A stretch of DNA of 64,000 bases, taken from contig JBAQCH010000385.1 in assembly GCA_049294015.1 (NCBI GenBank), forward strand, positions 1,111-65,110, read 5' to 3'. The translations under genes and the position numbers were made by a program. Origin of the DNA: Anaerolineae bacterium. Lineage in GTDB: Bacteria > Chloroflexota > Anaerolineae > JAAEKA01. Each line of letters begins with the position of its first letter. The first letter of the stretch is position 1. The notes beneath the pieces were generated by a model. It made no database searches, was not told where the DNA came from, and saw nothing but the letters and a program-made list of their open reading frames with translations. Shown here one piece after another: positions 3,550 through 45,074 of the stretch.

Positions 3550-3969
3550 ATGGATACGATTGTGCTGGAACCAAACCTGCGCGCCTGGCTGGAACAGGAT
3601 GCAGAACAAGACACTCGCAGCATCAACAATCTGATTAACGAAGCGGTCGCCCAGTATCTGCGCGAGCGACAGCAAGCCAAGCTCGACCGGGAGATCGTCG
3701 CATACGAAGCGATGCACTCCCAGTTGGCGCTCGATCACGCAGGTGAGTGGGTGGCTATCCATCAGCAGGAGCTAGTCGATCACGACCGTGATCGCGTAGC
3801 CCTCTACCGACGTATTCGTAGTCGCTTTGGACGGACGTCGGTGCTGATCCGTCAAGTCATGGACAATCCGATGGAGGAGGTGTGGTTGCGTACGCCTTCC
3901 ACCGGGAGAAACGTGCTGAATAGGTTGGTCATGGTCCTGGACGGCCCCAAACAGACCTTGCAGATATGA
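3550..3969 (+). CDS. small RHH(CopG-like)/DUF5678-like protein, translationally coupled to cydD
   Basis: 139 aa; N-terminal ribbon-helix-helix-like segment (RSINNLINEAVAQYLRER); stop overlaps cydD start (ATGA). Confidence 0.55.
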   Translation: MDTIVLEPNLRAWLEQDAEQDTRSINNLINEAVAQYLRERQQAKLDREIVAYEAMHSQLALDHAGEWVAIHQQELVDHDRDRVALYRRIRSRFGRTSVLIRQVMDNPMEEVWLRTPSTGRNVLNRLVMVLDGPKQTLQI

Positions 3970-5861
3970 CCGCTCTACCACGAATCGCAGGGAGGCGCGG
4001 CGCTGACGACTCGACGCATCAGCGAAAGCCGGGCTTGACCAGCCGGCTGCTTTCGGCCAGCCCAACGGCCCGCTGGCTGCTGTTCCTGGCCGTGACCGCC
4101 GGCTTCACAGCCGGCGCTTTGTTAGTAGCGCAGATCGTCCTGCTCAGCAGCGCGGTTCAGCGCGTCTTTATCCTCGATCAAACGCTGGGCGACGTGCTGC
4201 CGCTGCTGGGGGTGATGCTGGCGCTGCTGCTGCTGCGCGCGGGCCTGGTCTGGGCGCAGGAGGTGGCGGCCCAGGGCGCAGCCAGCCGCGTCAAGCAGGG
4301 GCTGCGCGGCCAACTGCTGGCGCGCATCTACGCGCTGGGGCCGGCCTATACCCGCAGCGAGCGCAGCGGCGAGCTGGTCAACACGGCTGTCGAGGGGGTG
4401 GAGGCCCTGGACCCCTACGTCACCCAGTTCCTGCCCGCCCGTGCGCTGGCCGTTCTGCTGCCGCTGCTGGTGCTGCTGGCCGTCTTCCTGCTGGACCGCT
4501 GGACGACGCTGGTGCTGCTCTTCGCCGGGCCGATGCTGCTCCTGCTGCTGGCCGTGATCGGCGGCCGGGCTAAGGCGCTGACCGAGCGCCGTTTCCTGGA
4601 GTTGAGCTGGCTGAGCGCCTTCTTCCTGGACGTGCTGCAAGGCATTGCTACGCTCAAGATGTTCGGACGCAGCCGCGAACAAGCCGCTACCATCGAACGC
4701 ATCAGCCAGCACTACGGCAAGACCACCATGGAGGTGCTGGCAACCGCTTTCCAGACCTCGCTGATGATGGAGTGGGCGGCCACCGCAGCCACAGCCATGG
4801 TGGCGCTGGAGGTTAGTCTGCGCCTGATCAACGGCGCGATCTCCTTCGACCGGGCGCTGGCCGTGCTGCTGCTGACGCCGGAGTTCTTCCTGCCTTTGCG
4901 CCAGATGGCGGTCAAATACCACGTCGGCACGGCCGGCCAGGCCGCGGCGCAGCGGGTGGCTGCGGTGTTGGATGAGGGGAGGGGAACTGGGGCAACTGGA
5001 GAAACCGGAGGAACTCGCGACGCTCAGACCGGTCTCCTGACCGAGCCCGCCGCGCGGTCATCCGCTGGGGCCGGTCTCCTGACCGAGCCCGCCGCGCGTT
5101 TTGACATAGGCTTCGACGACGTCTGGTTTGCCTATCCGCCGCGGGCGCAGGACAGCGGCCAGCTTGGAGAAAAGTCGGCCACTGTCCTGCGCGGTCTCAC
5201 CTTTGTCATTCCGCATGGCCAGACCACAGCGTTGGTGGGGGCAACCGGCGCAGGCAAGTCGACAGTCGCGAATCTGCTGTTGCGCTTCATCGACCCCGAC
5301 GCAGGCCGCATCACCGTGGGCGGCGTCAGCTTGGACAGCATCGGCCGCGCGGCGTGGCGGCGGCGGATAGCTATCGTGCCGCAGGCGCCGCACATCTTCC
5401 ACGGCACGGCGCTGGACAACATCCGCCTGGCCCGGCCCGAGGCCAGCATGGAGCAGGTGATCGCCGCGGCCCAGGCCGCCCACGCCCACGGCTTCATCCA
5501 GGCCCTGCCGCAGGGCTACGACACCCCGCTGGGCGAGGGCGGCGCACGGCTTAGCGGCGGCCAGCGCCAGCGCCTGGCCCTGGCGCGCGCCTTCCTCAAG
5601 GACGCCCCGCTGCTGCTACTGGATGAAGCCACCGCCAACCTGGACGCCGAGAGCGACGCCTTGATCCGCGCAGCGCTGGCTCGCCTCGCCGCCGGTCGCA
5701 CCGTCCTGCTCATCGCCCATCGTCTGGAGCTGGCCGCAGCCGCCGATCAAATCGTCGTCCTGGACGCCGGCCGCGCCGCCGAGGTCGGCAACCACGCCAC
5801 GCTCCTGGCCCAAAACGGCCTCTACACCCAACTGGTCAACAGCTACATGAACGATGAATGA
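3966..5861 (+). CDS. cydD: thiol reductant ABC exporter, CydD subunit (TMD-NBD)
   Basis: 6-TM ABC exporter domain plus NBD (Walker A GATGAGKST, LSGGQRQR signature, Walker B LLLLDEAT); directly downstream of cydAB. Confidence 0.85.
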   Translation: MTALPRIAGRRGADDSTHQRKPGLTSRLLSASPTARWLLFLAVTAGFTAGALLVAQIVLLSSAVQRVFILDQTLGDVLPLLGVMLALLLLRAGLVWAQEVAAQGAASRVKQGLRGQLLARIYALGPAYTRSERSGELVNTAVEGVEALDPYVTQFLPARALAVLLPLLVLLAVFLLDRWTTLVLLFAGPMLLLLLAVIGGRAKALTERRFLELSWLSAFFLDVLQGIATLKMFGRSREQAATIERISQHYGKTTMEVLATAFQTSLMMEWAATAATAMVALEVSLRLINGAISFDRALAVLLLTPEFFLPLRQMAVKYHVGTAGQAAAQRVAAVLDEGRGTGATGETGGTRDAQTGLLTEPAARSSAGAGLLTEPAARFDIGFDDVWFAYPPRAQDSGQLGEKSATVLRGLTFVIPHGQTTALVGATGAGKSTVANLLLRFIDPDAGRITVGGVSLDSIGRAAWRRRIAIVPQAPHIFHGTALDNIRLARPEASMEQVIAAAQAAHAHGFIQALPQGYDTPLGEGGARLSGGQRQRLALARAFLKDAPLLLLDEATANLDAESDALIRAALARLAAGRTVLLIAHRLELAAAADQIVVLDAGRAAEVGNHATLLAQNGLYTQLVNSYMNDE

Positions 5862-5932
5862 GGAACGATGAACGATGAACCGAAGAGTCATCGTCCCTCA
5901 TTCATCATTCATCATTCATCAATCATCATTCC

Positions 5933-7813
5933 ATGATACGCCTCCTCAAGCTCATCGCTCCCTTCCGCTGGTGGATCGTCGCCGGCGTGCTGTTGAGCTT
6001 CGCCGTCACCGGGGCCAGCGTCGGGCTGATGGCCGTGTCGGCCTACCTGATCTCCAAGGCGGCGTTGGCGCGCGACATGACCGACCTGGCCGTCTGGATC
6101 ACCGGCGTGCGCTTCTTCGCCGTCTCCCGGGCCGCGCTGCGTTACGCTGAGCGCTACGTCACCCACCTGGCCACCTTCCGCATCCTGACCTCGCTGCGCG
6201 TCTGGTTTTATAGCGCTGTCGAGCCGCTGGCGCCGGCCCGGCTGGCGTCATACCGCAGCGGCGACCTGTTGACCCGCATCGTAGCCGACATCGAGACGCT
6301 GGAGAACTTCTACCTGCGGGTGGTGATCCCGCCCTTGGCCGCCGCGCTGGTCACGCTGCTGGCCTGTCTGCTGCTGGGCAGCTTCGACGTCTGGCTGGGC
6401 ATCGCCTTGCTAAGTTTCTTGCTGCTCACCGGCGTCGCCCTGCCGCTGGCCAGCCGCTGGCTCAGCCGCCAGCCGGCGGCCGAGGCCATCGCCCTGCGCG
6501 CCGAGCTGAACGCCACGCTGGTGGACGACATTCAGGGCATCGCCGATCTGCTGGCCTGTGGCCAGGAAGAGGTGTACCAGGCCCGCACGCTGCGACTCAG
6601 CCAGCAACTCCACCAGGCTCAGCAGCGGCTGGCCCAGGTGCGCGGCCTGGGCAACGGTCTGGCCGCGCTCTGCGCCAGCCTGGCCGCGCTGACCGTGCTG
6701 TTCCTGGCCATCCCGCTGGTGACCGCCGGCCAGATCGACGGCGTCTTCCTGGCCCTGCTGCCGCTGGCCGCCATCGCCGCGTTCGAGGCCGTCCAGCCGC
6801 TGGCCCACGCCTGGCAGACGCTGGAATCCAGCCAGGCGGCCGCCCGACGTATCTTCGAGCTGGTCGACGCGCCAGGACTGTCAGGTCGGCGAATCGACGG
6901 CGGGACGAGCATGGGCGCGACGGGGCAGCCCCACACGTCAGCCGCCGACCTGACAGTCCTTGATGTAGTCGACGGCGGGACGAGCATGGGCGCGACGGTG
7001 CAGCCCCCCACGTCAGCCGCCGACCTGACAGTCCTTGATGTAGTCGACGCGCCAGGACTGTCAGGTCGGCGAGTCGACGGCGGGATGAGCATGGGCGCGA
7101 CGGGGCAGCCCCACACGTCAGCCGCCGACCTGACAGTCCTTGACAGCGGCGGCCTCTCTATCGAAATACGGGACCTGCGCTTCCGCTATGCTGCCGACGA
7201 GCCGCTGGTGTTGGACGGCGTCAGCTTCAGCGTGCCAGCCGGCGGCCGCGCGGCCATCGTCGGCCCCAACGGCTCCGGCAAGTCCTCGCTGGTCAACCTG
7301 TTGCTGCGCTTCTGGGACTACGAGGGGGGAACGATCCGCGTCGGGGGACGTGACTTGCGGGAGATGTCCGCCGACGAGGCGCGCGGCCTGCTGGCCGTCG
7401 TGCCGCAGCACACCCATCTGTTCAACGCCACGATTCGCGACAACCTCCACCTGGCCAACCCCGATGCCAGCGACGACGAGCTGATCGCCGCCTGCCAGCA
7501 AGCCCAGCTTCACGACTTCATCCAGAGCCTGCCGCAGGGCTACGACACGCTGGTGGGGGAGAACGGGCTGCTGCTCAGCGGCGGCGAGCGGCAGCGGCTG
7601 GCCATCGCCCGCGCCGTCCTGAAGGACGCGCCGATCCTGATCCTGGACGAGGCCACGTCGCAACTGGATGCCCTGACCGAGCAGCGCCTCTTGCAGTCGC
7701 TGGCCGCTTTCATGGGCCGCCGCACCACGCTCCTGATCTCGCACCGCCGGGCCGGGCTGGCGCAGTTCGAGCGCATCGAGCTGGAGGCCAGCAGCGCCGG
7801 GAATTACACCTAA
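5933..7813 (+). CDS. cydC: thiol reductant ABC exporter, CydC subunit (TMD-NBD) with repeat insertion in linker
   Basis: ABC exporter TMD plus NBD (GPNGSGKSS, LSGGERQR, ILILDEAT); contains three tandem ~105-bp palindromic in-frame repeats at 6864-7143. Confidence 0.85.
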   Translation: MIRLLKLIAPFRWWIVAGVLLSFAVTGASVGLMAVSAYLISKAALARDMTDLAVWITGVRFFAVSRAALRYAERYVTHLATFRILTSLRVWFYSAVEPLAPARLASYRSGDLLTRIVADIETLENFYLRVVIPPLAAALVTLLACLLLGSFDVWLGIALLSFLLLTGVALPLASRWLSRQPAAEAIALRAELNATLVDDIQGIADLLACGQEEVYQARTLRLSQQLHQAQQRLAQVRGLGNGLAALCASLAALTVLFLAIPLVTAGQIDGVFLALLPLAAIAAFEAVQPLAHAWQTLESSQAAARRIFELVDAPGLSGRRIDGGTSMGATGQPHTSAADLTVLDVVDGGTSMGATVQPPTSAADLTVLDVVDAPGLSGRRVDGGMSMGATGQPHTSAADLTVLDSGGLSIEIRDLRFRYAADEPLVLDGVSFSVPAGGRAAIVGPNGSGKSSLVNLLLRFWDYEGGTIRVGGRDLREMSADEARGLLAVVPQHTHLFNATIRDNLHLANPDASDDELIAACQQAQLHDFIQSLPQGYDTLVGENGLLLSGGERQRLAIARAVLKDAPILILDEATSQLDALTEQRLLQSLAAFMGRRTTLLISHRRAGLAQFERIELEASSAGNYT

Positions 7814-10620: not shown

Positions 10621-10799
10621 ACAGAACAGGACTTACGCCAAACGCTGGTCGAGTAGGCCCGGCGGGTTTCGATACGCTGGATTTGAGCCTGCAAGATACG
10701 TGGTTGCAGCCGCCACTCAACCCACCGGCCGTATCGAGACCCGTTTTGCGTAAGTCCTGAGAGTTTTCGGACCTTTCATCGAAGGAGGCTTGCAACACA

Positions 10800-13174: not shown

Positions 13175-13505
13175 ACGGCGTCCAGCACTTGCGGCGTCTC
13201 TGGCCGGCAATAGCGGCTGCACGAGAAGCTTCACAAACGCACAGGAGGCTGGGCGCGGCGTATTCGCGCCCTGTGGCTGGCCGGCCGATCTGAGTGACGA
13301 AGCGATCTTGGAGCGGCTGTTGGCGCTGAACGGGGAACGGGCAGCGGCGCCAGTCTAACGCCCCACGCTCGTTTGCCGCCACCGCCGTTTCGTGGATAAT
13401 GGGGCAAAGCCGGGATTATCGTTTCGCAACTGCACCCAACCTGCGCATCCGCTGGCATCGACCGCGCCAGTTGCGACACCGAAATCTGCCCGGACCTTTC
13501 GTCTC

Positions 13506-16106
13506 ATGCCCCACGACTATTCGACACTGATTACAACCAAGCTCCACCGTCCCCAGGTGGCCGGTGTACACGTCGAACGGACGCGCCTGCTCCAGCAGAT
13601 GCAGCGCGGCCTCAGCCAGCCGCTGACCCTGGTCTGCGCCGGAGCCGGTTTCGGCAAGACGACGTTGGTTAGTTGCTGGCTGGCGCAGAACGATGAACGC
13701 GCAGCGCTGAACGATGAAGCGGGCGCGGCGGAGACCTCTGCCTTTCATCGTTCATCGTTCAACCCTCATCATTTCCCCTCCGCCTGGCTAACGCTGGACG
13801 CACAGGATAGCGACCTGGGGCGATTTGCGGTCTATGTCGTTGCCGCGCTGCGCACGATGTTCCCCGACGCGTGCAGCGCAACCCTGGAGTTGGTGCATAC
13901 ACGAGCGGAGCCTCCCCTGGAGTTGCTGGCTGCCACCCTGATCAATGAGATCGCCCAACTCCCCAAGCATTTCGTCCTGGTTCTGGATGCCTTCGGCTCC
14001 CTTTCTGGCGAGGCTGTCCCTGATCTGCTGAACCGGTTGTTGCAGCACTGGCCGCCCACCATGCATCTGGTGCTGATCTCGCGCTTCAGCCCGAGCTTGT
14101 CGCTCGCCCGGCTGCGGGCCAACGGCGAGATCACCGAAATCCGTAGCCGCGACTTGCGTTTCACGGCCGAGGAGACGGCGGCCTATCTGGACCTGGCGCT
14201 GCCCACCCCGCTCAGCCAGCCGGCCCAAACCACGCTCGAGCAACGGGCCGAGGGATGGGTCGCCGGCCTGCAGCTAGCCGTTCTAGCTCTGCGCACGATG
14301 AGCGAGGCCGACATCGACGCAGCGATTGGCGCAGTGGTCGGGGTCGACGCAGTACAATATTTGGTAGACGAGGTTCTCGCGCATCAGCCGCCGGCGATTG
14401 AGGATTTTTTGCTCAGAACGTCAATCCTGGATCGCTTCTGTGCATCCTTGTGTGAGGCGGTCGCAGGCGGCGATGATGCCGGATGGACGGCGCAGGAAAG
14501 CCTGGCTTGGGTCGAACAGGCCAACCTGTTCGTCATATCGATGGACTATCAGCATGAGTGGTTTCGTTATCACAACTTGTTCCGGGAGACGCTGCGCCAG
14601 AGGCTGAACCACCGCTGGGGCCCGGACGAAGTGACCCGCTTGCACCGCGCGGCAGCCAAGTGGTTTGCGGAAAAAGGGTTGATCGATGAGGCGTTGCGCC
14701 ACGCCCTGGCGGCCGACGATCTGGAGCAGGCCGCCACCTTGATGGAGCATGCCCTGTGCGACGTGCTCAACCATGAGGACTGGCCCGCGCTGGCCCGCTG
14801 GCTGCGCCTGCTGCCCGAGGAGTCTGTCGAACGCCACCCCGGCATCCTGATGATCAAAGTGTGGTCGCTGCATTGGTCCTGGCAGCTTGACGCCATACCT
14901 CCGCTGCTCGACCAGATCGATAGGCTGATCGACGAGATTGGCCCCGGGGGCGACCTGCCAGCGCTGCGCGGGCAGATCGCTTTGCACCGTGCGCAGATCG
15001 CGTATATGCACAACCAGCCCGCCCGCGCCCTGGCCCACTGCCAGGAAGCATTGGCGCACCTGCCCAAAACGTGGCTGCACGGCCGCGGCAGCGCCATGTT
15101 GTTCACCGGCATGAGCCTGCAAGCCTTGGGCCGGGGCGACGAAGCCGAGCGCCTGTTGCGCAGCCAGTATGAGAGTCTTGGCGACTTGACAAGCAACTAT
15201 GCCATCCGGCTGCTGTTTGGCCTGACGGCCGTTTATTTTCAGTCGGGCCAGTTCGAGCTGGCCCGGCAGGCAGCCCAGGGAATGCTCCATCAGGCCGTGC
15301 GCAGCCGCTTGCCGATCCTCGAAGGTTGGGCTACGCTCTATCTCGCCAGGGTCTGGTATCACTGGAATGACTTGGATCAGGCCAGCCAAAGCTTCGAGAA
15401 GCTGGTCGACAAGCGTTATGTCATCCACAGCCAAACGGCGCGCAACAGTTTCGTAGGCCTGGCGCAGACACTGCAGGCGCGCGGCCAAAGCGTCGAGGCA
15501 TGGGAAGTGTTAGGGCTGCTCAGCCGCTTCGACCTGGATCTTGTCGGGCAGGAAACCGGCGACACGCGTGCTTTGCGCGCCTGGTTAGCGTTGGCGCAGG
15601 GCGATCGGGAACTCGCCTTGCGCTGGGCAGACTCGTTTTCTGCCCCGGCGTCGGAGCGCCCTTTTATCTGGGTGCAACAGCCGCACCTCATCAAGGCGTG
15701 TATCATGCTGGCCAGGGGCGGGAAGTCCGACATTCAGTCGGCCCTTGAGATCGCCGACGCCATCTACGCGATTGCCGAACGAGCGGCCAGCACGGACTTC
15801 ATGATAGCAGCCCTGGCTGTGCGTGCGCTGGCGCTCGATGCCGCGCAGCAAGCTGATGCTGCTCAGGCGGCGCGCGGTTGCGCTGGCCCAGCCCGGCGGC
15901 TTAATCCGGCTATTCGTCGACCTGGGGCCGCACATGCAGACGTTGCTGCGCCAACTGGCCAGGGACGAAGCGTCCAACGAGCTCGTCCGGCGCATTCTGG
16001 CCGCATTCTCAGACGCGCACGATGGAGCGGCCGGGGAGACAGCCGCGCGGCCTGCGCCGCGATCGTTCAAGGTGGCCGGCCTGGTGGAGCCGCTGACCAT
16101 GCGTGA
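13506..16106 (+). CDS. MalT-like LuxR-family regulator (AAA ATPase + TPR), apparently frameshifted before the HTH domain
   Basis: TKLHRPQ start motif; Walker A GAGFGKTT; paralog of the 42339 gene; reading frame diverges from the paralog around 15860-15880. Confidence 0.65.
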   Translation: MPHDYSTLITTKLHRPQVAGVHVERTRLLQQMQRGLSQPLTLVCAGAGFGKTTLVSCWLAQNDERAALNDEAGAAETSAFHRSSFNPHHFPSAWLTLDAQDSDLGRFAVYVVAALRTMFPDACSATLELVHTRAEPPLELLAATLINEIAQLPKHFVLVLDAFGSLSGEAVPDLLNRLLQHWPPTMHLVLISRFSPSLSLARLRANGEITEIRSRDLRFTAEETAAYLDLALPTPLSQPAQTTLEQRAEGWVAGLQLAVLALRTMSEADIDAAIGAVVGVDAVQYLVDEVLAHQPPAIEDFLLRTSILDRFCASLCEAVAGGDDAGWTAQESLAWVEQANLFVISMDYQHEWFRYHNLFRETLRQRLNHRWGPDEVTRLHRAAAKWFAEKGLIDEALRHALAADDLEQAATLMEHALCDVLNHEDWPALARWLRLLPEESVERHPGILMIKVWSLHWSWQLDAIPPLLDQIDRLIDEIGPGGDLPALRGQIALHRAQIAYMHNQPARALAHCQEALAHLPKTWLHGRGSAMLFTGMSLQALGRGDEAERLLRSQYESLGDLTSNYAIRLLFGLTAVYFQSGQFELARQAAQGMLHQAVRSRLPILEGWATLYLARVWYHWNDLDQASQSFEKLVDKRYVIHSQTARNSFVGLAQTLQARGQSVEAWEVLGLLSRFDLDLVGQETGDTRALRAWLALAQGDRELALRWADSFSAPASERPFIWVQQPHLIKACIMLARGGKSDIQSALEIADAIYAIAERAASTDFMIAALAVRALALDAAQQADAAQAARGCAGPARRLNPAIRRPGAAHADVAAPTGQGRSVQRARPAHSGRILRRARWSGRGDSRAACAAIVQGGRPGGAADHA

Positions 16107-16287
16107 ACGGGAGATTCTGTTGCTTCTGCGCGAGCCCTTGAGCGGCAAAGAAATCGCCAAAACCCTCTTTATCTCCCCCACAACCTTCAAACGCCACAGC
16201 GCCAACATCTACGGCAAGCTGGGCGTTCATAATCGCTGGGACGCCGTGGCAGCGGCCGATGCGTTGGGCGTTCTCCCGCCCCGCTGA
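15823..16287 (+). pseudogene. C-terminal LuxR HTH portion of the preceding regulator, in +1 frame (frameshift or sequencing error)
   Basis: AVALAQPGGLIRLFVDLGPHM...LTMREREILLLLREPLSGKEIAKTLFISPTTFKRHSANIYGKLGV aligns with the C-terminus of the LuxR at 42339. Confidence 0.55.
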
Positions 16288-20475: not shown

Positions 20476-20480
20476 CGCCA

Positions 20481-20555
20481 GGTAGATTGGTAGATTGGTA
20501 AACCGGTAGATTGGTCAGCTTTTTCGCGAGACTCAACCAATCTACCAATCTACCA
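20481..20555 (+). repeat. long hairpin built from GGTAGATTGGT repeats downstream of argF
   Basis: ggtagattggtagattggt ... accaatctaccaatctacc, with a third direct copy in the loop. Confidence 0.6.
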
Positions 20556-20580
20556 GCCGTGTTGAACTGATCAAAAAGGA

Positions 20581-36433: not shown

Positions 36434-37486
36434 TTACTGGGCGGCCGGCGCCAGAACAGCGGGCGCCGCGTCCGTGTCGCCGGTGACGGTCAGGCGTCCA
36501 ATGACTACGTTGTCCGGCGTCATGCTGGCGATGTAGACCTTGTAACGGCCCACCACCGGCGCATCGATGTCCACCAGCGGGTTGAGGGTGTCCTCGGTCG
36601 CGTTCAGGTTGCACAGCAGTTGGTTGTCGGGCGTGATCACCGCCAGCGCGCTGTCCTCCCGCGCCTCGAAGAAAATGCGCACGGCCTCCGCGTCGCCGGT
36701 CCAACTGAAGGTGTAGCTGGGGATCAGGCTGATATAGCCCGCGCAGGCCAGTTGGCCGTTCTCGAAGGAGAAGGCCGAGATGTCGCCGCCGCCGGCCGCG
36801 AACTTGCTGATCGGCTCGAAGCCGGGCTGCAGGGCGGCTGCGCCGAAGATGCCAGGCCGGCTAACCAGCAGCGTGGCTGGATCGAGCCGCGGCAACGGCT
36901 GGGCTTGCGGCCGCGCGCGACGGGTCAGCATGGGGCGCAGGTCCAGGTCGGCCAGGGCGAGGTCGTCCATGTCCATGCCCGTGATGCCCAGGAAGCCCAG
37001 CGCCGGCTCACCCTCCTGCGCCGTGCCCACATGGATGTTGTAGGCGCCCTCGGCCGGATTGTCGATCACCAACAGCGGATCGGTAGTGTTCAGGCCAGCG
37101 TCGTCGTTGCAGACGAAGCTGCCGTCGGGCAGTTGCACCACCAGCACCGGGTCGGAATCGCTGTAGCCGAAAAAGGCCAGCCGCTCCGCCTCGCCGGCCC
37201 AGTTGACCACCACGTTGGGCTCGGCGTTGACGAAGCCGTTGCATCCCTCCAGCACGTCACCGGCTGCCAGGTCGCCCGCGCCGATGACCGGCAGAATGAA
37301 GGGGTCGAGGATGAAGCCGGCGCGCAGGTCGATCATGGCACGCGTGACATCGGCCGCCGGGTCAGCCAGCGGCGTGTCAGCTTCTTGCGCGGCCGGTTGG
37401 CCCTGTGTTGCCGCCAGCAGCGGCGTCGCGGCCAGCAGGGCCAACAGCGCAACGCCAGCCAGCATGAGTGCTCGTTTCTTGAACAT
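36434..37486 (-). CDS. secreted protein with two tandem ~150-aa Cys-containing repeat domains, unknown function
   Basis: signal peptide MFKKRALMLAGVALLALLAATPLLAA preceded by AAGGAG RBS; internal duplication (GCNGFVNAEP... / ACAGYISLIP...). Confidence 0.65.
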   Translation of the reverse strand: MFKKRALMLAGVALLALLAATPLLAATQGQPAAQEADTPLADPAADVTRAMIDLRAGFILDPFILPVIGAGDLAAGDVLEGCNGFVNAEPNVVVNWAGEAERLAFFGYSDSDPVLVVQLPDGSFVCNDDAGLNTTDPLLVIDNPAEGAYNIHVGTAQEGEPALGFLGITGMDMDDLALADLDLRPMLTRRARPQAQPLPRLDPATLLVSRPGIFGAAALQPGFEPISKFAAGGGDISAFSFENGQLACAGYISLIPSYTFSWTGDAEAVRIFFEAREDSALAVITPDNQLLCNLNATEDTLNPLVDIDAPVVGRYKVYIASMTPDNVVIGRLTVTGDTDAAPAVLAPAAQ

Positions 37487-37579
37487 CGGGAGCTCCTTTC
37501 GGGAATTGGGTTGGCAATCGAGGAATGCCGGATACACGCCAGCGCGCTGCTCGCGGTTCACCCCGTGCAGTCACTCCAT

Positions 37580-37619
37580 CACCCTGTCACCTTGCCACCT
37601 TGTCACCCTGTCACCCTGA
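37580..37619 (-). promoter_or_regulatory. five tandem octamer repeats (CAGGGTGA/CAAGGTGR on - strand) upstream of 36434 gene
   Basis: tcaccctg tcaccttg ccaccttg tcaccctg tcaccctg, 95-135 nt upstream of the start codon. Confidence 0.45.
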
Positions 37620-40864: not shown

Positions 40865-40877
40865 TTCTTTCATTTGG

Positions 40878-41007
40878 GTGTGTTCAAAGTAGGTTGAGTC
40901 CCCCTCCGGCTCGTAGGACGATTTTCCAAATCGTCCGTTCTTGTGGCCGTGAGGCGGACGATTTGGAAAATCGTCCTACGCAGGCTCAACCCATTTTGAA
41001 CACACCC
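40878..41007. mobile_element. MITE-like nested inverted-repeat element flanked by 11-bp direct repeat CTTTCATTTGG
   Basis: terminal IRs gtgtgttcaaagtaggttgag / ctcaacccattttgaacacac; two internal inverted hairpin units (ggacgattttccaaatcgtcc / ggacgatttggaaaatcgtcc); flanking direct repeats at 40867-77 and 41008-18. Confidence 0.45.
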
Positions 41008-41124: not shown

Positions 41125-41772
41125 ATGAATCCTGATTCTTTCTTCGCGATGGCCTGCGCCAGCCTGATCGCCTTCATGTTCGGCCTGGTGCTCTGTTTCG
41201 GCGGCTATCGCTTCTTTCTCATCCTGCTGCCCATCTGGGGCTTCTTTTTTGGCCTGGTCTTCGGGGCCCAGTCGATGCAGATGCTGTTCGGCGCGGGGTT
41301 CCTTGCCACCGTGACCAGTTGGGTGGCTGGCTTCGTGGTCGGCGCGATCTTCGCCGTGCTGTCCTATTTCTTCTACTTCTTCGCCGTGGTGTTGATCGGC
41401 GCAGCGCTGGGCTATACAGCCGCCACCGGGCTTCTGCTGGCCATTGGCATGGATATGGGCTTCCTGGTCTGGATCGTCGGCGTCGTAGCTGCCGTCGCGA
41501 TGGCCTTCGTCACCATCCGCTTCAACCTGCAGAAGTGGGTCATCATCATCGCCACCAGCCTGCTGGGCGCGGGCGTGATCTTCGGCGCCTTCGTGATCCT
41601 CTTCGCCCCGCACGCTGCGTTGATGGAGAACCCCATCAAGGTGGCCTTGCAGCAGTCGCCGCTGCTCCTGATCACGGCGCTGATCGTCGCCATCCTCGGC
41701 ATCGTCGTCCAGGTGCGCGCTAACCGCGCCTACACCCTCGAGACCTACAACCGTTGGGCTGAGCCGGTCTGA
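41125..41772 (+). CDS. DUF4203 (TM7S3/TMEM198-like) membrane protein
   Basis: 215 aa, 7 predicted TM; AAGGAG RBS. Confidence 0.55.
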   Translation: MNPDSFFAMACASLIAFMFGLVLCFGGYRFFLILLPIWGFFFGLVFGAQSMQMLFGAGFLATVTSWVAGFVVGAIFAVLSYFFYFFAVVLIGAALGYTAATGLLLAIGMDMGFLVWIVGVVAAVAMAFVTIRFNLQKWVIIIATSLLGAGVIFGAFVILFAPHAALMENPIKVALQQSPLLLITALIVAILGIVVQVRANRAYTLETYNRWAEPV

Positions 41773-41774
41773 GA

Positions 41775-41902
41775 GTGTCAGGTGTCAAGTGTCATAAGTG
41801 TCAGGTGTAGGGTGTCATGTGTCAAGTACCAAGTGTCAGGTGTCATGTGGCATGTTGAGCGTGCTGCGGGGCACCTGACACCCGACACCCGACACCTGAC
41901 AC
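41775..41902. repeat. GTGTCAR heptamer tandem-repeat tract with downstream inverted copy
   Basis: about 10 tandem gtgtca(g/a) units at 41775-41848; complementary cacctgacacccgacacccgacacctgacacc at 41871-41902. Confidence 0.6.
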
Positions 41903-41923
41903 CTTCCCACAAGGAGATTCCCC

Positions 41924-42217
41924 ATGTGCTGTCTATTCACTGTCCTGGTCTTTCTCGGCCCGCGCGCCGGCATTCTCGTCTGGTGGCTGCTTCAGCCGGC
42001 GCGTTGGCAGTTGGCTTTTGCCAACATGAGTTTCCTCATACCGCTCCTGGGCTTCGTCTTCGTGCCCTGGACGACCATCATGTACGTGCTGGTCTTTGCC
42101 GGCGGCGTCACCGGCTTCGATTGGGTGTGGCTGGGCCTCGGCCTGCTGGCTGACATCGCCTGGTGGTCGGGCGCGGCCGCGCGCCGGCGCGTTCCGGGCT
42201 ACACCGGCCAGTATTAG
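41924..42217 (+). CDS. small 3-TM membrane protein, divergent paralog of 16826/45803 family
   Basis: 97 aa; same TM topology and conserved W/P positions; AAGGAG RBS. Confidence 0.55.
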   Translation: MCCLFTVLVFLGPRAGILVWWLLQPARWQLAFANMSFLIPLLGFVFVPWTTIMYVLVFAGGVTGFDWVWLGLGLLADIAWWSGAAARRRVPGYTGQY

Positions 42218-42338: not shown

Positions 42339-45074
42339 ATGGGCACTACGGCGCTTGATATCCTTCGCACCAAACTGTATCGTCCTTCAGTCAGCGCAGA
42401 CTTCGTGCGCCGTCCCCGCTTGACCAGCTTGCTGGACCAGGGGCGCCATTTGCCGTTGACCCTGATCTCGGCGCCGGCCGGCTCAGGCAAAACCTCGCTG
42501 CTCAGCGACTGGCTCGCGGCCTGCCCTTGTCCTAGCGCGTGGCTGTCGTTGGACGAGGGCGACGGCGACTTGGTGGTTTTCCTCGACTACTTCGTCGCTG
42601 CGCTGCGCACCATCGTGCCGGGTGCTTGCCCACAGACGCTGGCCATCCTGAGCGCACCGGACTTTCCGCCGGTTTCAGTGTTGGCCGGCCTGTTGAGCAA
42701 CGAGATCGAGAGCCTGCACGATCACCCGGCGCTGGCCGCACACAAGGGCTTCGTGCTGGCGCTGGACGACTATCATCTCCTCTCCGGCCAAGCTGTCAAC
42801 AACTTGCTGGCCGAGTTGCTGCGCCATCCGCCGCGGTCTCTGCGCCTGATATTGGCCGCGCGCAGCGACCCGGCCCTGCCTTTAAGCTCACTGCGCGCCC
42901 ACCGCCAGGTAGTCGAGATTCGCCGGCAAGACCTGCGTTTCACGTTGGGCGAGGTGCGGCAATACATCCAGCAGGCGTTGCCACAGTCCGTCGACGAAGA
43001 TATGGTCGCCGTGTTGCACGACCGGACCGAGGGGTGGGTCACCGGGCTGGTGCTTGCCATCCTCTTTCTGCGCCATGCCCCGGACTCGGACGAGTTCCTG
43101 TCCGACTTGGCCGCCAACGAGCGCCTGGCCATGGACTACCTGGTGGACGAGGTACTCTCCCGCCAGCCCGAGGCGATTCAAGACTTCCTGCTCAAGACGT
43201 CGCTGCTGGACCGGTTGTACGGCCCGCTGTGCGAGGCCGTCACCGGCCTCAACGATCCGGTGCGCAATGGCCACGCCTATCTGGAATGGCTCGAACAGGC
43301 CAACCTCTTCATCGTGGCGCTGGATACCCAGGGCCAGTGGTTTCGCTACCATCACTTGTTCCAAAAGCTTCTGCAAAACAGGCTGCTGCGCCACGCTGGC
43401 CCGGTCCAGGTCGCCGAGCTGCACCGCCGGGCCAGCGCCTGGTTGGCCGGTAACGGCCTCGTCGAGGAGGCGATCGGCCATGCCCTGGCGGCCGGCGATG
43501 AAGCGGCCGCCGTGCAGATCATCGAGGAAAACCGCCACCAGGCCATGAACCAGGAGCGCTGGCAGCAGATCGAGACCTGGCTGCGGCTGCTGTCCCAGCG
43601 TCTGGTGGACGAACGACCAGAGCTGCTGCTCGCGGAAGCCTGGATTCAGCACAAGCAGTGGCGTTACGGCGACCTAGCTCCCTACCTGACGCGCATCGAG
43701 GCCCTGTTGCAAACCGCGGTCTTGCCAGAGGAGGGGCGCGCGCATCTGCAGGGTGAGGTCGATGTGTTGCACTGCGCGGTATCCTACTTTGCGATGGACG
43801 CGCAGCACACCTTCGAGCTGGCTGGCCGCGCTCTGCAAACTTTGCCTATGGAGTGCTCCATCGCCCGCGGGCTGGCCTGGATGTACTACGGCGGCGGGCT
43901 TCAGCAGATGGGGGATCACGACGGCGCGCGCGCCGCGCTACACCGGGGTCTGCAAGAGGATCGAGTCCACGGCGATTCGTTCGCGGCCCGTCTGCTGATT
44001 GGCCTGTGCCTGCTCGACTGGATGGCGGCGGATTTGGCGGATTTGAACCGGTCGGCGACGCAGTTACTCAGAATCGCCGGTGAGCGCCAACTGACCGAGA
44101 GCGCTGGCTGGGCGCGCTATTTTCAGGGCTGCGCGGCCTATCAGTGGAACGACCTGGCCGGCGCCGAGGAGGATTTCGCGTCCGTGGTAGGGCAGCGTTA
44201 CGTTGCGCACAGCGCGCCTTTCTCGCAGAGCTGCTATGGCCTGGCTGCGGCGTATCAGGCATCCGGCAAGGGCGATCAGGCGCAGGCCGTGGTCGAGTCG
44301 GTGCTGGTCTTCGCCTTGGAGATGAACAACACGCGCGTGCTGGCCGACGCCCGCGCGTTTCAGGCCTGGCTGGCGCTGCAACAAGGCCGGCCGGCCGAAG
44401 CGCAGCGCTGGGCAGAGTCGGTCGACCCGCACGCGCGGCTATTGCCTTTCTCTACGTTCTTCGTTCCCGCCATCGCCTTGGCGCAAGTGTTGCTGGACCA
44501 GCGGACGCCGGCCAGCTTGCGCCGGGCGTCCGAATTGCTGGAGCGCCTGCACGGCGCGGTCGCCAGCCAGCGCAGCGGGCGTTTCGCCGTCGAGGTACTG
44601 GCGCTGCAAGCCTGGCTGGACGACCTGCGGGGCGACGAGCCGGCTGCGCTGGCGGCCCTACAGCAGGCCGTGACGCTGGCCGAGCCGGACGGCATCGTGC
44701 GCGCCTTTGCCGACCTGGGACCGCACATGGCCGGGCTGCTGACGCGTCTGCGCCAGCAAGGGGTTGCCGTCGATTTCATTGGCCGCCTGCTGCGGGCCTT
44801 TCCGGGAGACTTGGCTGACAAGTTCGACCTATCCCGGTCTGCGCGCCCCAAAGCTCCCGCCACCAGCCTGGTCGAGCCGCTGACCTATCGCGAGATGGAG
44901 ATCCTCGAGCTGTTAGCCCAACGGCTCAGCGCCAAGGAGATCGCCGAGCGGCTGGTCATTTCCGACCGCACGGTCAAGCGCCACACCGCCAACATCTATC
45001 AGAAGCTCGACGTCCACGGTCGCCAGCAGGCAGTCGCGGAGGCCAGAAGCCTGGGGTTGCTTTCATCCGTTTGA
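42339..45074 (+). CDS. MalT-like LuxR-family transcriptional regulator (AAA ATPase + TPR + LuxR HTH)
   Basis: 911 aa; RTKLYRP start; Walker A APAGSGKTS; C-terminal LTYREMEILELLAQRLSAKEIAERLVISDRTVKRHTANIYQKL. Confidence 0.85.
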   Translation: MGTTALDILRTKLYRPSVSADFVRRPRLTSLLDQGRHLPLTLISAPAGSGKTSLLSDWLAACPCPSAWLSLDEGDGDLVVFLDYFVAALRTIVPGACPQTLAILSAPDFPPVSVLAGLLSNEIESLHDHPALAAHKGFVLALDDYHLLSGQAVNNLLAELLRHPPRSLRLILAARSDPALPLSSLRAHRQVVEIRRQDLRFTLGEVRQYIQQALPQSVDEDMVAVLHDRTEGWVTGLVLAILFLRHAPDSDEFLSDLAANERLAMDYLVDEVLSRQPEAIQDFLLKTSLLDRLYGPLCEAVTGLNDPVRNGHAYLEWLEQANLFIVALDTQGQWFRYHHLFQKLLQNRLLRHAGPVQVAELHRRASAWLAGNGLVEEAIGHALAAGDEAAAVQIIEENRHQAMNQERWQQIETWLRLLSQRLVDERPELLLAEAWIQHKQWRYGDLAPYLTRIEALLQTAVLPEEGRAHLQGEVDVLHCAVSYFAMDAQHTFELAGRALQTLPMECSIARGLAWMYYGGGLQQMGDHDGARAALHRGLQEDRVHGDSFAARLLIGLCLLDWMAADLADLNRSATQLLRIAGERQLTESAGWARYFQGCAAYQWNDLAGAEEDFASVVGQRYVAHSAPFSQSCYGLAAAYQASGKGDQAQAVVESVLVFALEMNNTRVLADARAFQAWLALQQGRPAEAQRWAESVDPHARLLPFSTFFVPAIALAQVLLDQRTPASLRRASELLERLHGAVASQRSGRFAVEVLALQAWLDDLRGDEPAALAALQQAVTLAEPDGIVRAFADLGPHMAGLLTRLRQQGVAVDFIGRLLRAFPGDLADKFDLSRSARPKAPATSLVEPLTYREMEILELLAQRLSAKEIAERLVISDRTVKRHTANIYQKLDVHGRQQAVAEARSLGLLSSV

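Follow-up and report, generated by a model that had tools for sequence, protein, structure and literature searches.

A 64,000-nucleotide (nt) stretch of the genome of an Anaerolineae bacterium (contig JBAQCH010000385.1; hereafter the window) contains a palindrome of short tandem repeats across the junction of cydD and cydC, and a similar palindrome that is translated in frame within the gene of a MalT/LuxR-type regulator. The question raised by this locus is whether a small element was inserted at both places, as a first-pass annotation of the sequence had proposed, or whether each palindrome arose where it is now found. We consider it reasonably probable (about 0.6) that both are heptameric simple sequence repeat (SSR) palindromes grown in place, forming a stem-loop at the junction and a passenger in the regulator. 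On present sequence evidence, one repeat family appears to be used both between genes and in frame, and it is not a mobile insertion.

Results

A polar palindrome of tandem heptamers at the cydD-cydC junction

NCBIfam equivalog models identified CydD (TIGR02857, 517 bits against a cut-off of 435) and CydC (TIGR02868, 478 bits against a cut-off of 329), the latter encoded at 5933-7813, and NCBIfam models also placed cydA and cydB upstream of the pair. The 10-mer GAACGATGAA had seven matches in the window, where 0.05 were expected and none of 100 shuffled sequences reached seven. These matches start at 5849, 5863 and 5870 on the plus strand, at 13688 and 13709 on the plus strand, and at 13744 and 13751 on the minus strand; within the window, the 10-mer is confined to 5849-5879 and 13688-13760. 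The first three are the three gaacgatgaa copies that had already been described for the cydD stop region and spacer.

Tandem Repeats Finder (TRF) reported two arrays at the junction, (ATGAACG)x4.9 at 5847-5880 and (TCATTCA)x4.9 at 5898-5931, and the inverted-repeat arms at 5847-5878 and 5888-5919 were 84% complementary. The RNA fold of 5840-5940 reached -32.7 kcal/mol (z -4.52), and 0 of 200 shuffles folded equally well. The element is a polar palindrome of tandem heptamers with the form (GAACGAT)n-loop-(ATCGTTC/ATCATTC)n. Its 5' arm includes the last four cydD codons and the stop codon (...YMNDE*), in agreement with the earlier description of a hairpin that overlaps the cydD C terminus. The 3' arm is pyrimidine/CA-rich, has no Shine-Dalgarno sequence and ends 2 nt ahead of the cydC ATG. 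The main stem of the minimum-free-energy structure extends to 5912, 20 nt ahead of the cydC AUG. There is no U-tract or T run after the stem, and a terminator scan did not report the junction hairpin.

Graded states of the junction in relatives

Relatives of the junction were obtained from a metagenome scan with CydD, and the percentages given for them are amino-acid identities. The junction hairpin of the closest relative (L125, 99%) is identical to that of the window. Two further relatives (L129 and L130, 70 and 62%) have a homologous hairpin, GAACGATGAACGATGAGCGATGAA-ttgaagaagc-TTCATTCATCATTCATCATACATCC, with fewer units, a different loop and a fold z of -2.4; their cydD ends in ...NGER*, in the register GAA CGA TGA, which differs from the register in the window. 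In L127 (73%), only GAACGATGAAC is found, a 1.5-unit seed that holds the stop codon, and the TGA lies 4 nt ahead of the cydC ATG. L126 (82%) is without the 5' arm and has a single-arm, CA-rich array, (CCATTCA/CAATTCA)n, with a folding energy of 0. In relatives at 47% identity the two genes overlap at ATGA or are separated by a plain spacer, without repeats. Because the orthologous junctions show these graded states, slippage from a local seed is favoured over insertion of a ready-made element. Judged from this sequence series, the junction hairpin is old, it expands, contracts and loses arms, and its unit contains the cydD stop codon.

The spacer array of L126, at 2190-2255 of that locus, is unstructured and stands directly ahead of the cydC ATG; it may be a leader without a Shine-Dalgarno sequence that derives from the 3' arm.

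An in-frame copy in a MalT-like regulator

Alignment of the regulator at 13392-16106 with the paralog at 42339 (WLAACPCPSAWLSLD), in which the loop is minimal, gave about 26-30 extra residues in the regulator, so the in-frame addition of about 30 residues noted by the first-pass annotation, absent from this paralog, was recovered. Query residues 64-93 face residues 57-59 of E. coli MalT (8BOB), which form a 3-residue loop after the Walker-A helix, and only one of the six reading frames is open through the element. Its inverted-repeat arms (13689-13718 and 13744-13773) were 73% complementary, and the RNA fold of 13680-13780 reached -38.3 kcal/mol (z -2.70), with 3 of 200 shuffles equally good.

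The two window copies have heptamer, polarity and ends in common (GAACGATGAA...TCATCATT(T)CC) and align at 79% mean column identity over segments of ~100 nt; the motif family thus stands both between genes and in frame, as had been suggested. The loops (cores) of the two copies are unrelated, and the similarity is confined to the repeat units. A search of the window for (GAA N4)4 periodicity returned only these two sites.

Compared with two independent assemblies of the same species (L120 and L121), the regulator has an 8-nt deletion (GCCGCGCT) at 15866/15867. The frameshift after 15866 puts the GerE helix-turn-helix domain in another frame; either the gene is a pseudogene in this strain, or the assembly is wrong here.

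Two unrelated alleles of the regulator loop

Alleles were compared among 40 homologs, with a gene tree built without the loop. The segment NDERAxxNDEAGTAETSxLHRSSFxPHxFPS was present in P0001, P0007, P0009-P0012 and P0021; it was shorter in P0004 and P0014 and longer in P0031, and in P0032 and P0033 it was reduced to NDERRY, with one AACGATGAACG seed kept in the DNA. The tabulated lengths of the NDE family (12, 26, 33 and 40 residues) show 7-codon differences, equal to three heptamers; the 8-residue alleles of P0032 and P0033 and the 24-residue loop of P0027 lie outside this series. In P0014, 21 nt of the 5' arm were lost and TTCATCC was expanded in the 3' arm.

Other orthologs carry an alternative allele of 16-17 unrelated residues, SSLEAxxxxPGAVPT. 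Upstream of the regulator, L122 (NDE type) and L124 (SSLEA type) have the same genes as the window, namely those of a Phage_holin_4_2/phosphodiesterase/Yip1-domain protein, a second Phage_holin_4_2 protein and an ABC1 kinase, and from these matching upstream genes both regulators are orthologs of the window gene. The two alleles are interleaved on the gene tree, where the window gene and P0001 are sister to the SSLEA-type P0002 and P0003. The segment is thus not a loop conserved in all orthologs, whose presence the first-pass annotation had named as evidence against its reading; the SSLEA allele alternates with it across the tree. We also considered whether SSLEA could be the reverse complement or a shifted frame of the NDE element, and this was excluded, as the other five frames hold stops and there is no DNA similarity.

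The window gene and P0002 (SSLEA) are 84% identical overall and 88-95% identical right up to the segment, and the window gene and P0010 (NDE) are 71% identical overall and 87-88% identical within the element. The proportion of synonymous differences (pS) was 0.11-0.21 within the element versus 0.53-0.55 in the rest of the gene, ~3-fold fewer synonymous changes, and that of non-synonymous differences (pN) was 0.10-0.22 within the element versus 0.24 elsewhere. The pN/pS of the element is therefore ~1, compared with ~0.2-0.45 for the flanks and the rest of the gene, and in 98%-identical strains all four differences in the element were non-synonymous. Because pN/pS is ~1, the element is read as a tolerated passenger, the peptide being, as far as these substitutions tell, under no amino-acid constraint. 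Its presence in many syntenic and deep-branching orthologs points to an old copy, not a recent insertion in this genome. As for its nucleotides, either homogenisation or constraint acts on them as a repeat, or short-tract recombination exchanges an allele that is younger than the genes.

The dimorphic loop, at 13683-13784 of the window and in loci L120, L122, L124, L205-L209 and L235-L237, holds one of the two unrelated alleles. The loop segment is bracketed by a direct repeat, TGGCTG ... GCCTGGCT (W-L ... A-W-L).

Occurrence across phyla and strict polarity

A scan of 185,579 species genomes for the exact 17-mer GAACGATGAACGATGAA gave at least 119 loci (L001-L119) in at least six phyla, including Acidobacteriota, Planctomycetota, Chloroflexota, Cyanobacteria and Bacteroidota. 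Confinement of the motif to the two window sites, which would have spoken against the earlier interpretation, was thus not what the scan returned. None of the listed loci matches the window beyond the repeat itself.

Among the matches listed, to which the counts in this paragraph refer, 140 of 144 arrays extend to at least three units, and about half are followed, within 140 nt, by a complementary array, which was never on the upstream side. The GAACGAT arm is thus the 5' one in every pair, with 20 pairs in the '+-' order versus 0 in the '-+' order for exact matches and 73 versus 0 under relaxed matching; the loop or spacing between paired arrays varies from 15 to 54 nt. By crude open reading frame (ORF) calls, 32 paired hairpins lie between co-directional genes, 10 between convergent and 3 between divergent ones, and 4 lie inside ORFs. 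Loops differ between loci, related genomes have inner-stem motifs in common, and large contigs have only 1-2 exact 17-mers each. Two copies with a common loop were found in one metagenome-assembled genome (MAG) of Thermoanaerobaculia (L006).

Where units vary, conservation is highest at positions 2-3 of the GAA triplet (95% and 87%, versus 56-72% elsewhere). A further 34 hairpins with other 7-8-nt units were found in ~1.3 Mb of DNA from the loci; their 5' arm has more G than C in 25 cases versus 9, a weaker bias of the same sign (G-rich, purine-rich 5' arm). A general rule that the stop codon always lies in the 5' arm failed for these other units (14 versus 6). Stop codons are present in all three frames in the GAACGAT orientation alone. 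It is possible that the polarity comes from selection against read-through tails; other candidate causes are a unit-adding mechanism and weak RNA:DNA hybrid formation by the pyrimidine-rich 3' arm.

A scan of viral contigs gave 25 matches; because these were mostly isolated 17-mers without arrays, carriage by phages is not indicated. In an Anaerolinea sp. MAG (L034, 4192-4209), a GAACGAT array is read through in frame (…KMLAVNDELGTMNDEPRRRNG…) within an 861-amino-acid ORF. By eye, its flanks resemble the end of a GlcD-like and the start of a GlcE-like protein, and the array may be a further junction array, one by which two genes were fused.

Other hairpins and arrays in the window

Two more hairpins in the window follow the design of the GAACGAT palindromes, with different units (Table 1). 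The first begins directly after an argF-like gene, and its ortholog in L124 has the form (CGGTAAT)n/(GATCACC)n, with ~25 copies of GATCACC, so that unit and copy number change at this site much as they do at the cydD-cydC junction; the second sits between a stop codon at 41770-41772 and the next ATG at 41945. Because of these two hairpins, we take the object under study to be a palindrome with tandem 7-8-nt arms, of which GAACGAT is one of several units.

The single-arm octamer array at 37579-37618 adjoins, on the upstream side, the candidate start (37561) of the minus-strand ORF 36434-37561, which was listed mechanically. Each of its units contains both GGTGA, which resembles the extended Shine-Dalgarno sequence, and the GTGA start/stop overlap.

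Inside cydC, at 6866-7140, a 75-nt palindromic unit (arms AGGACTGTCAGGTCGGCG / CGCCGACCTGACAGTCCT) occurs in three in-frame copies. The linker that joins the membrane and ATPase domains of CydC gains 25 residues from each copy, and the CydC model match is split in two by the repeats. Two copies are present in the 99%-identical L125, and none in the orthologs L127 and L129.

Table 1. Repeat features and associated gene landmarks in the window.
Feature	Position	Strand	Description and evidence
cydD-cydC hairpin, 5' arm	5847-5880	+	~4.9 tandem heptamers in GAACGAT / GAATGAG register; TRF, exact 10-mers, inverted repeat, fold
cydD stop codon TGA	5859-5861	+	Variant repeat unit inside the 5' arm; ORF 3966-5861
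cydD-cydC hairpin, loop	5881-5887	+	From ccgaagag; unrelated to the loop of the regulator copy
cydD-cydC hairpin, 3' arm	5888-5931	+	TCATCGT ccc, then (TCATTCA)x4.9; TRF, inverted repeats, sequence
cydC start codon	5933-5935	+	Start confirmed by orthologs beginning M(I/V/L)RLLKL
MalT/LuxR-type STAND regulator, host gene of the in-frame copy	13506-16287	+	Pfam, translation, alignment with the intact L120/L121
In-frame GAACGAT hairpin in the MalT-like regulator	13686-13778	+	QNDERAALNDEAGAAETSAFHRSSFNPHHFP; TRF, inverted repeat, fold, alignments
Subparts of the regulator hairpin		+	5' units 13688-13697 and 13709-13718; core 13719-13743; 3' arm (TTCATCG)x2.6, 13744-13761, plus CTCATCATT
Hairpin of the same design, other unit	20476-20559	+	(GGTAGATT)n-loop-(AATCTACC)n; begins 1 nt past the stop of the argF-like gene; fold -39.3 kcal/mol, z -6.0
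Single-arm octamer array	37579-37618		(TCACCCTG)x5; minus strand (CAGGGTGA)n
Hairpin of the same design	41774-41904	+	(A/GGTGTCA)x10.6-loop-(CACCTGA/CACCCGA)x4.7; fold -71 kcal/mol, z -5.8

Discussion

Proposed growth in place

We propose that a short seed would be the origin of each array, that replication slippage would then alter it by 7 nt at a time, or by 21 nt where the reading frame must be kept, and that the second arm would arise from inverted copying, with no transposition of a defined element. At the junction, the seed would be the cydD stop region GAA CGA TGA, which is 4 nt from the cydC ATG in one relative; in the expanded form, the cydD stop would come to lie inside the 5' arm and a CA/U-rich 3' arm without a Shine-Dalgarno sequence directly before cydC. 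The hairpin would be transcribed within the cydABDC mRNA as an intercistronic RNA stem-loop, and a ribosome terminating on cydD could melt the stem and free the cydC leader. Translation of cydC would in this way be kept dependent on that of cydD, as with the 4-nt spacer or the ATGA overlap in relatives. Alternatively or in addition, the stem may set the stability of the upstream mRNA, as described for repetitive extragenic palindromic (REP) elements. In the regulator, the palindrome, located in the loop that follows the Walker-A helix and translated in its one open frame, would be a tolerated passenger.

Several observations weigh against parts of this proposal. The cydC AUG sits only in a weak 5-bp helix of the minimum-free-energy fold, and because of this and because the main stem ends at 5912, occlusion of the cydC start is at most possible. 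The junction hairpin is dispensable, because L126 is without the 5' arm and in L127 nearly everything is gone. Translational coupling by hairpin melting is thus weakly suggested, because the stem ends 20 nt before the AUG and relatives manage without a hairpin. At the regulator, a covariation test of five elements gave a term of +1.92 with only one compensatory pair and no support, and the low synonymous divergence, together with the interleaved SSLEA allele, would also fit lateral exchange of a discrete segment. Finally, slippage alone does not account for the strict polarity or for the recurrence of one unit across many phyla.

A possible mobile element

The alternative that survives best, although we consider it unlikely, is that a small non-autonomous mobile element, similar to MITEs (miniature transposable elements bounded by inverted repeats), to REP elements and their paired forms (REPINs) or to Rickettsia palindromic elements, was inserted independently at the junction and in the regulator. 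The two copies are indeed alike in unit, polarity and ends, and the insert is absent from the paralog. Among syntenic orthologs, its distribution is patchy and interleaved, with flanks 88-95% identical up to the segment, and the ~3-fold fewer synonymous differences are those expected of a younger, exchanged segment. The common loop of the two L006 copies would also suit a mobile element, and the genome tolerates another in-frame palindrome in cydC. However, neither window copy has a target-site duplication or terminal repeats distinct from the tandem units, and their cores are unrelated. The graded states and the seed at the cydDC junction, the seed in the short regulator allele and the unit-step lengths also argue against insertion, and the SSLEA allele is a replacement, not an empty site. 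Large contigs have only 1-2 exact 17-mers each, and there is no further copy in the 64-kb window. The claim of the first-pass annotation that one related element had been "inserted" at two places was not supported, given the unrelated loops, the graded junction and the age of the regulator segment.

Like the GAACGAT palindromes, REP elements, their mosaic assemblies (BIMEs) and REPINs are extragenic palindromes found after genes and between co-directional or convergent genes, and they avoid divergent spacers; they have been proposed to stabilise mRNA and to influence how the gene upstream is translated. Unlike REP elements and REPINs, the GAACGAT palindromes have arms of tandem heptamers, unit ends without a GTAG/CGTC tag, unique loops and an apparently low copy number per genome (two copies in 64 kb here, and 1-2 exact 17-mers on the large contigs of other genomes). 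Rickettsia palindromic elements are dispersed mobile repeats of 100-150 nt with a conserved sequence that stand in frame in permissive surface segments of proteins. The regulator copy may be likened to them by functional analogy, as an in-frame palindrome in a permissive loop that is absent from homologs, but it differs in that it is built of heptamers and its length changes by 21 nt at a time; the 75-nt cydC unit is a closer analogue of Rickettsia palindromic elements than the heptamer hairpin is. A search against Rfam gave no match in the window at the gathering score, the only hits being generic hairpins of miRNA models at 12-31 bits, compared with gathering scores of 38-184.

Possible recognition arrays and other readings

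Less likely again is that the palindromes are recognition arrays for a conserved factor, for instance a protein that binds RNA or DNA and reads (ATGAA N2)n, or that a dedicated enzyme makes them by adding units. Such a mechanism would account for the strict polarity (20:0 and 73:0) and for one unit recurring in many phyla; the conservation of GAA positions 2-3 and the bias of the other units (25 versus 9) also speak for it. The always-convergent arrangement is also reported, unexplained, in Xanthomonas (PMC4692102), and a candidate factor has been proposed for TAACTGA repeats (PMC4679880). No candidate protein was identified here, however; units differ within one genome and drift at orthologous sites, loop or spacing ranges over 15-54 nt, the polarity could reflect selection against long read-through tails, and no Rfam family was found. 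We consider a broader version of this idea to be similarly doubtful: the polar palindromes, with an (ATGAACG)n 5' arm that carries start and stop codons in all frames and a complementary 3' arm, would form a cross-phylum class, made or read by a dedicated mechanism and acting as bidirectional gene-end insulators or translational-coupling devices. If the class were real, the regulator locus would show that species can swap such a palindrome, as a discrete cassette, for an unrelated allele. Compatible with this version are the absolute polarity of the GAACGAT unit (73:0) and the bias of other units (25:9), the recurrence of the unit in at least six phyla, the ~3-fold reduced synonymous divergence of the element and the interleaved NDE and SSLEA alleles, with flanks identical up to the segment.

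That the cydD-cydC hairpin is an intrinsic transcription terminator or attenuator seems improbable to us. CydD and CydC form a heterodimer that needs joint expression. A strong stem (-32.7 kcal/mol) and the position of the class downstream of genes, avoiding divergent spacers, would suit a terminator, and the pyrimidine-rich 3' arm would be expected to form a weak RNA:DNA hybrid; against this, the U-tract is missing, the terminator scan is silent on the hairpin, the NCBIfam names make CydD and CydC two subunits of one exporter, and relatives have a 4-nt spacer or an overlapping ATGA. Very little speaks for the extra 30 residues being a selected functional loop of the regulator with an incidental DNA palindrome, since, although the segment is kept in many orthologs at 57-96% identity with a recognisable NDE...HRSSF pattern, its pN/pS is ~1 versus ~0.2-0.45, the four strain differences are all non-synonymous, sister lineages have an unrelated allele and the peptide pattern is that of the two arms translated.

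Relation to known heptamer repeats

The palindromes stand beside known repeats of the same period. Xanthomonas GGGAATC heptamers (Rehm et al. 2015) form ~185 arrays per genome, with 70-75 convergent pairs that can fold into stem-loops; intergenic positions, closer to the ORF on the upstream side, make up 89-93%, positions between divergent ORFs 7-8% and intragenic ones 7-11% (PMC4692102). In Xanthomonas and Nostoc, 2 to 26 tandem heptamer units make up the GGGAATC and GGGGA(C/T)T repeats, and the length of the Xanthomonas arrays differs between related species while their single or paired type is kept (PMC4692102). The GAACGAT repeats resemble them in their tandem 7-nt units, convergent pairing, mostly intergenic position near the upstream 3' end, rarity between divergent genes and varying unit number, and the regulator copy corresponds to the intragenic minority of the Xanthomonas arrays. 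They differ from GGGAATC in having no G run and no quadruplex potential, so the G-tracts are specific to that member and not to the heptamer convergent-pair kind; because the non-G-rich GAACGAT pairs likewise, convergent pairing cannot be a quadruplex feature. Further differences from the Xanthomonas and Nostoc repeats are the Chloroflexota lineage and the one copy that is translated in frame and dimorphic among orthologs. We conclude that the GAACGAT palindromes belong to the known heptameric SSR convergent pairs and that the unit itself is new; a literature search for GAACGAT repeats and tandem-armed palindromes found no description of this unit.

TAACTGA direct repeats (MacGregor 2015) occur in Beggiatoaceae, Cyanobacteria and Bacteroidetes, are intergenic and have no evident transfer mechanism (PMC4679880). 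They often abut start codons that lack a Shine-Dalgarno sequence, their unit contains stop codons and a translational role has been proposed; almost all sets are direct, with one inverted among 170 (PMC4679880). GAACGAT is likewise a specific heptamer common to distant phyla, whereas half of its arrays have a complementary arm. As cited there, Mrazek et al. (2007) found heptanucleotides to be the most abundant class of long prokaryotic SSRs (via PMC4679880). To the extent that they are described in that account, these SSRs and the heptamers of cyanobacterial short tandemly repeated repetitive (STRR) sequences have in common with GAACGAT the 7-nt period, slippage-type changes in copy number and an intergenic bias, and the surveys treat arrays singly, with paired polar hairpins and in-frame 21-nt stepping outside that description. 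In Geobacter metallireducens, (GGACCGG)x4 is likewise a multicopy set of tandem heptamers, with 49 loci between and within genes (PMC2700814), but the unit is another one, the count is fixed at four and the description of these elements does not present them as polar palindromes.

Heptamer repeats are the commonest long SSRs in bacteria and have no established function. The orthologous series from seed to hairpin to single arm would illustrate, at one operon junction, how a hairpin grows from a stop/start overlap, and the translated copy, with 7-codon length steps and pN/pS of ~1, how the dynamics of a nucleotide repeat may write protein sequence. For annotation, such arrays supply stop codons, odd C-terminal tails (MNDE*, GER*) and possibly spurious ORF extensions.

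Further repeats in the window

A 136-nt element at 10624-10759 has a counterpart of 88% identity in L124 (17443-17579), where it stands at a position that is not orthologous. Its terminal inverted repeats of ~33 nt are 76% complementary, the outermost 12 nt, CAGGACTTACGC, forming an exact inverted repeat; the element, present in one copy in the window, looks MITE-like. In addition, a perfect 26-nt palindrome (40912-40937 / 40955-40980) is nested in an inverted repeat at 40876-40898 / 40985-41007.

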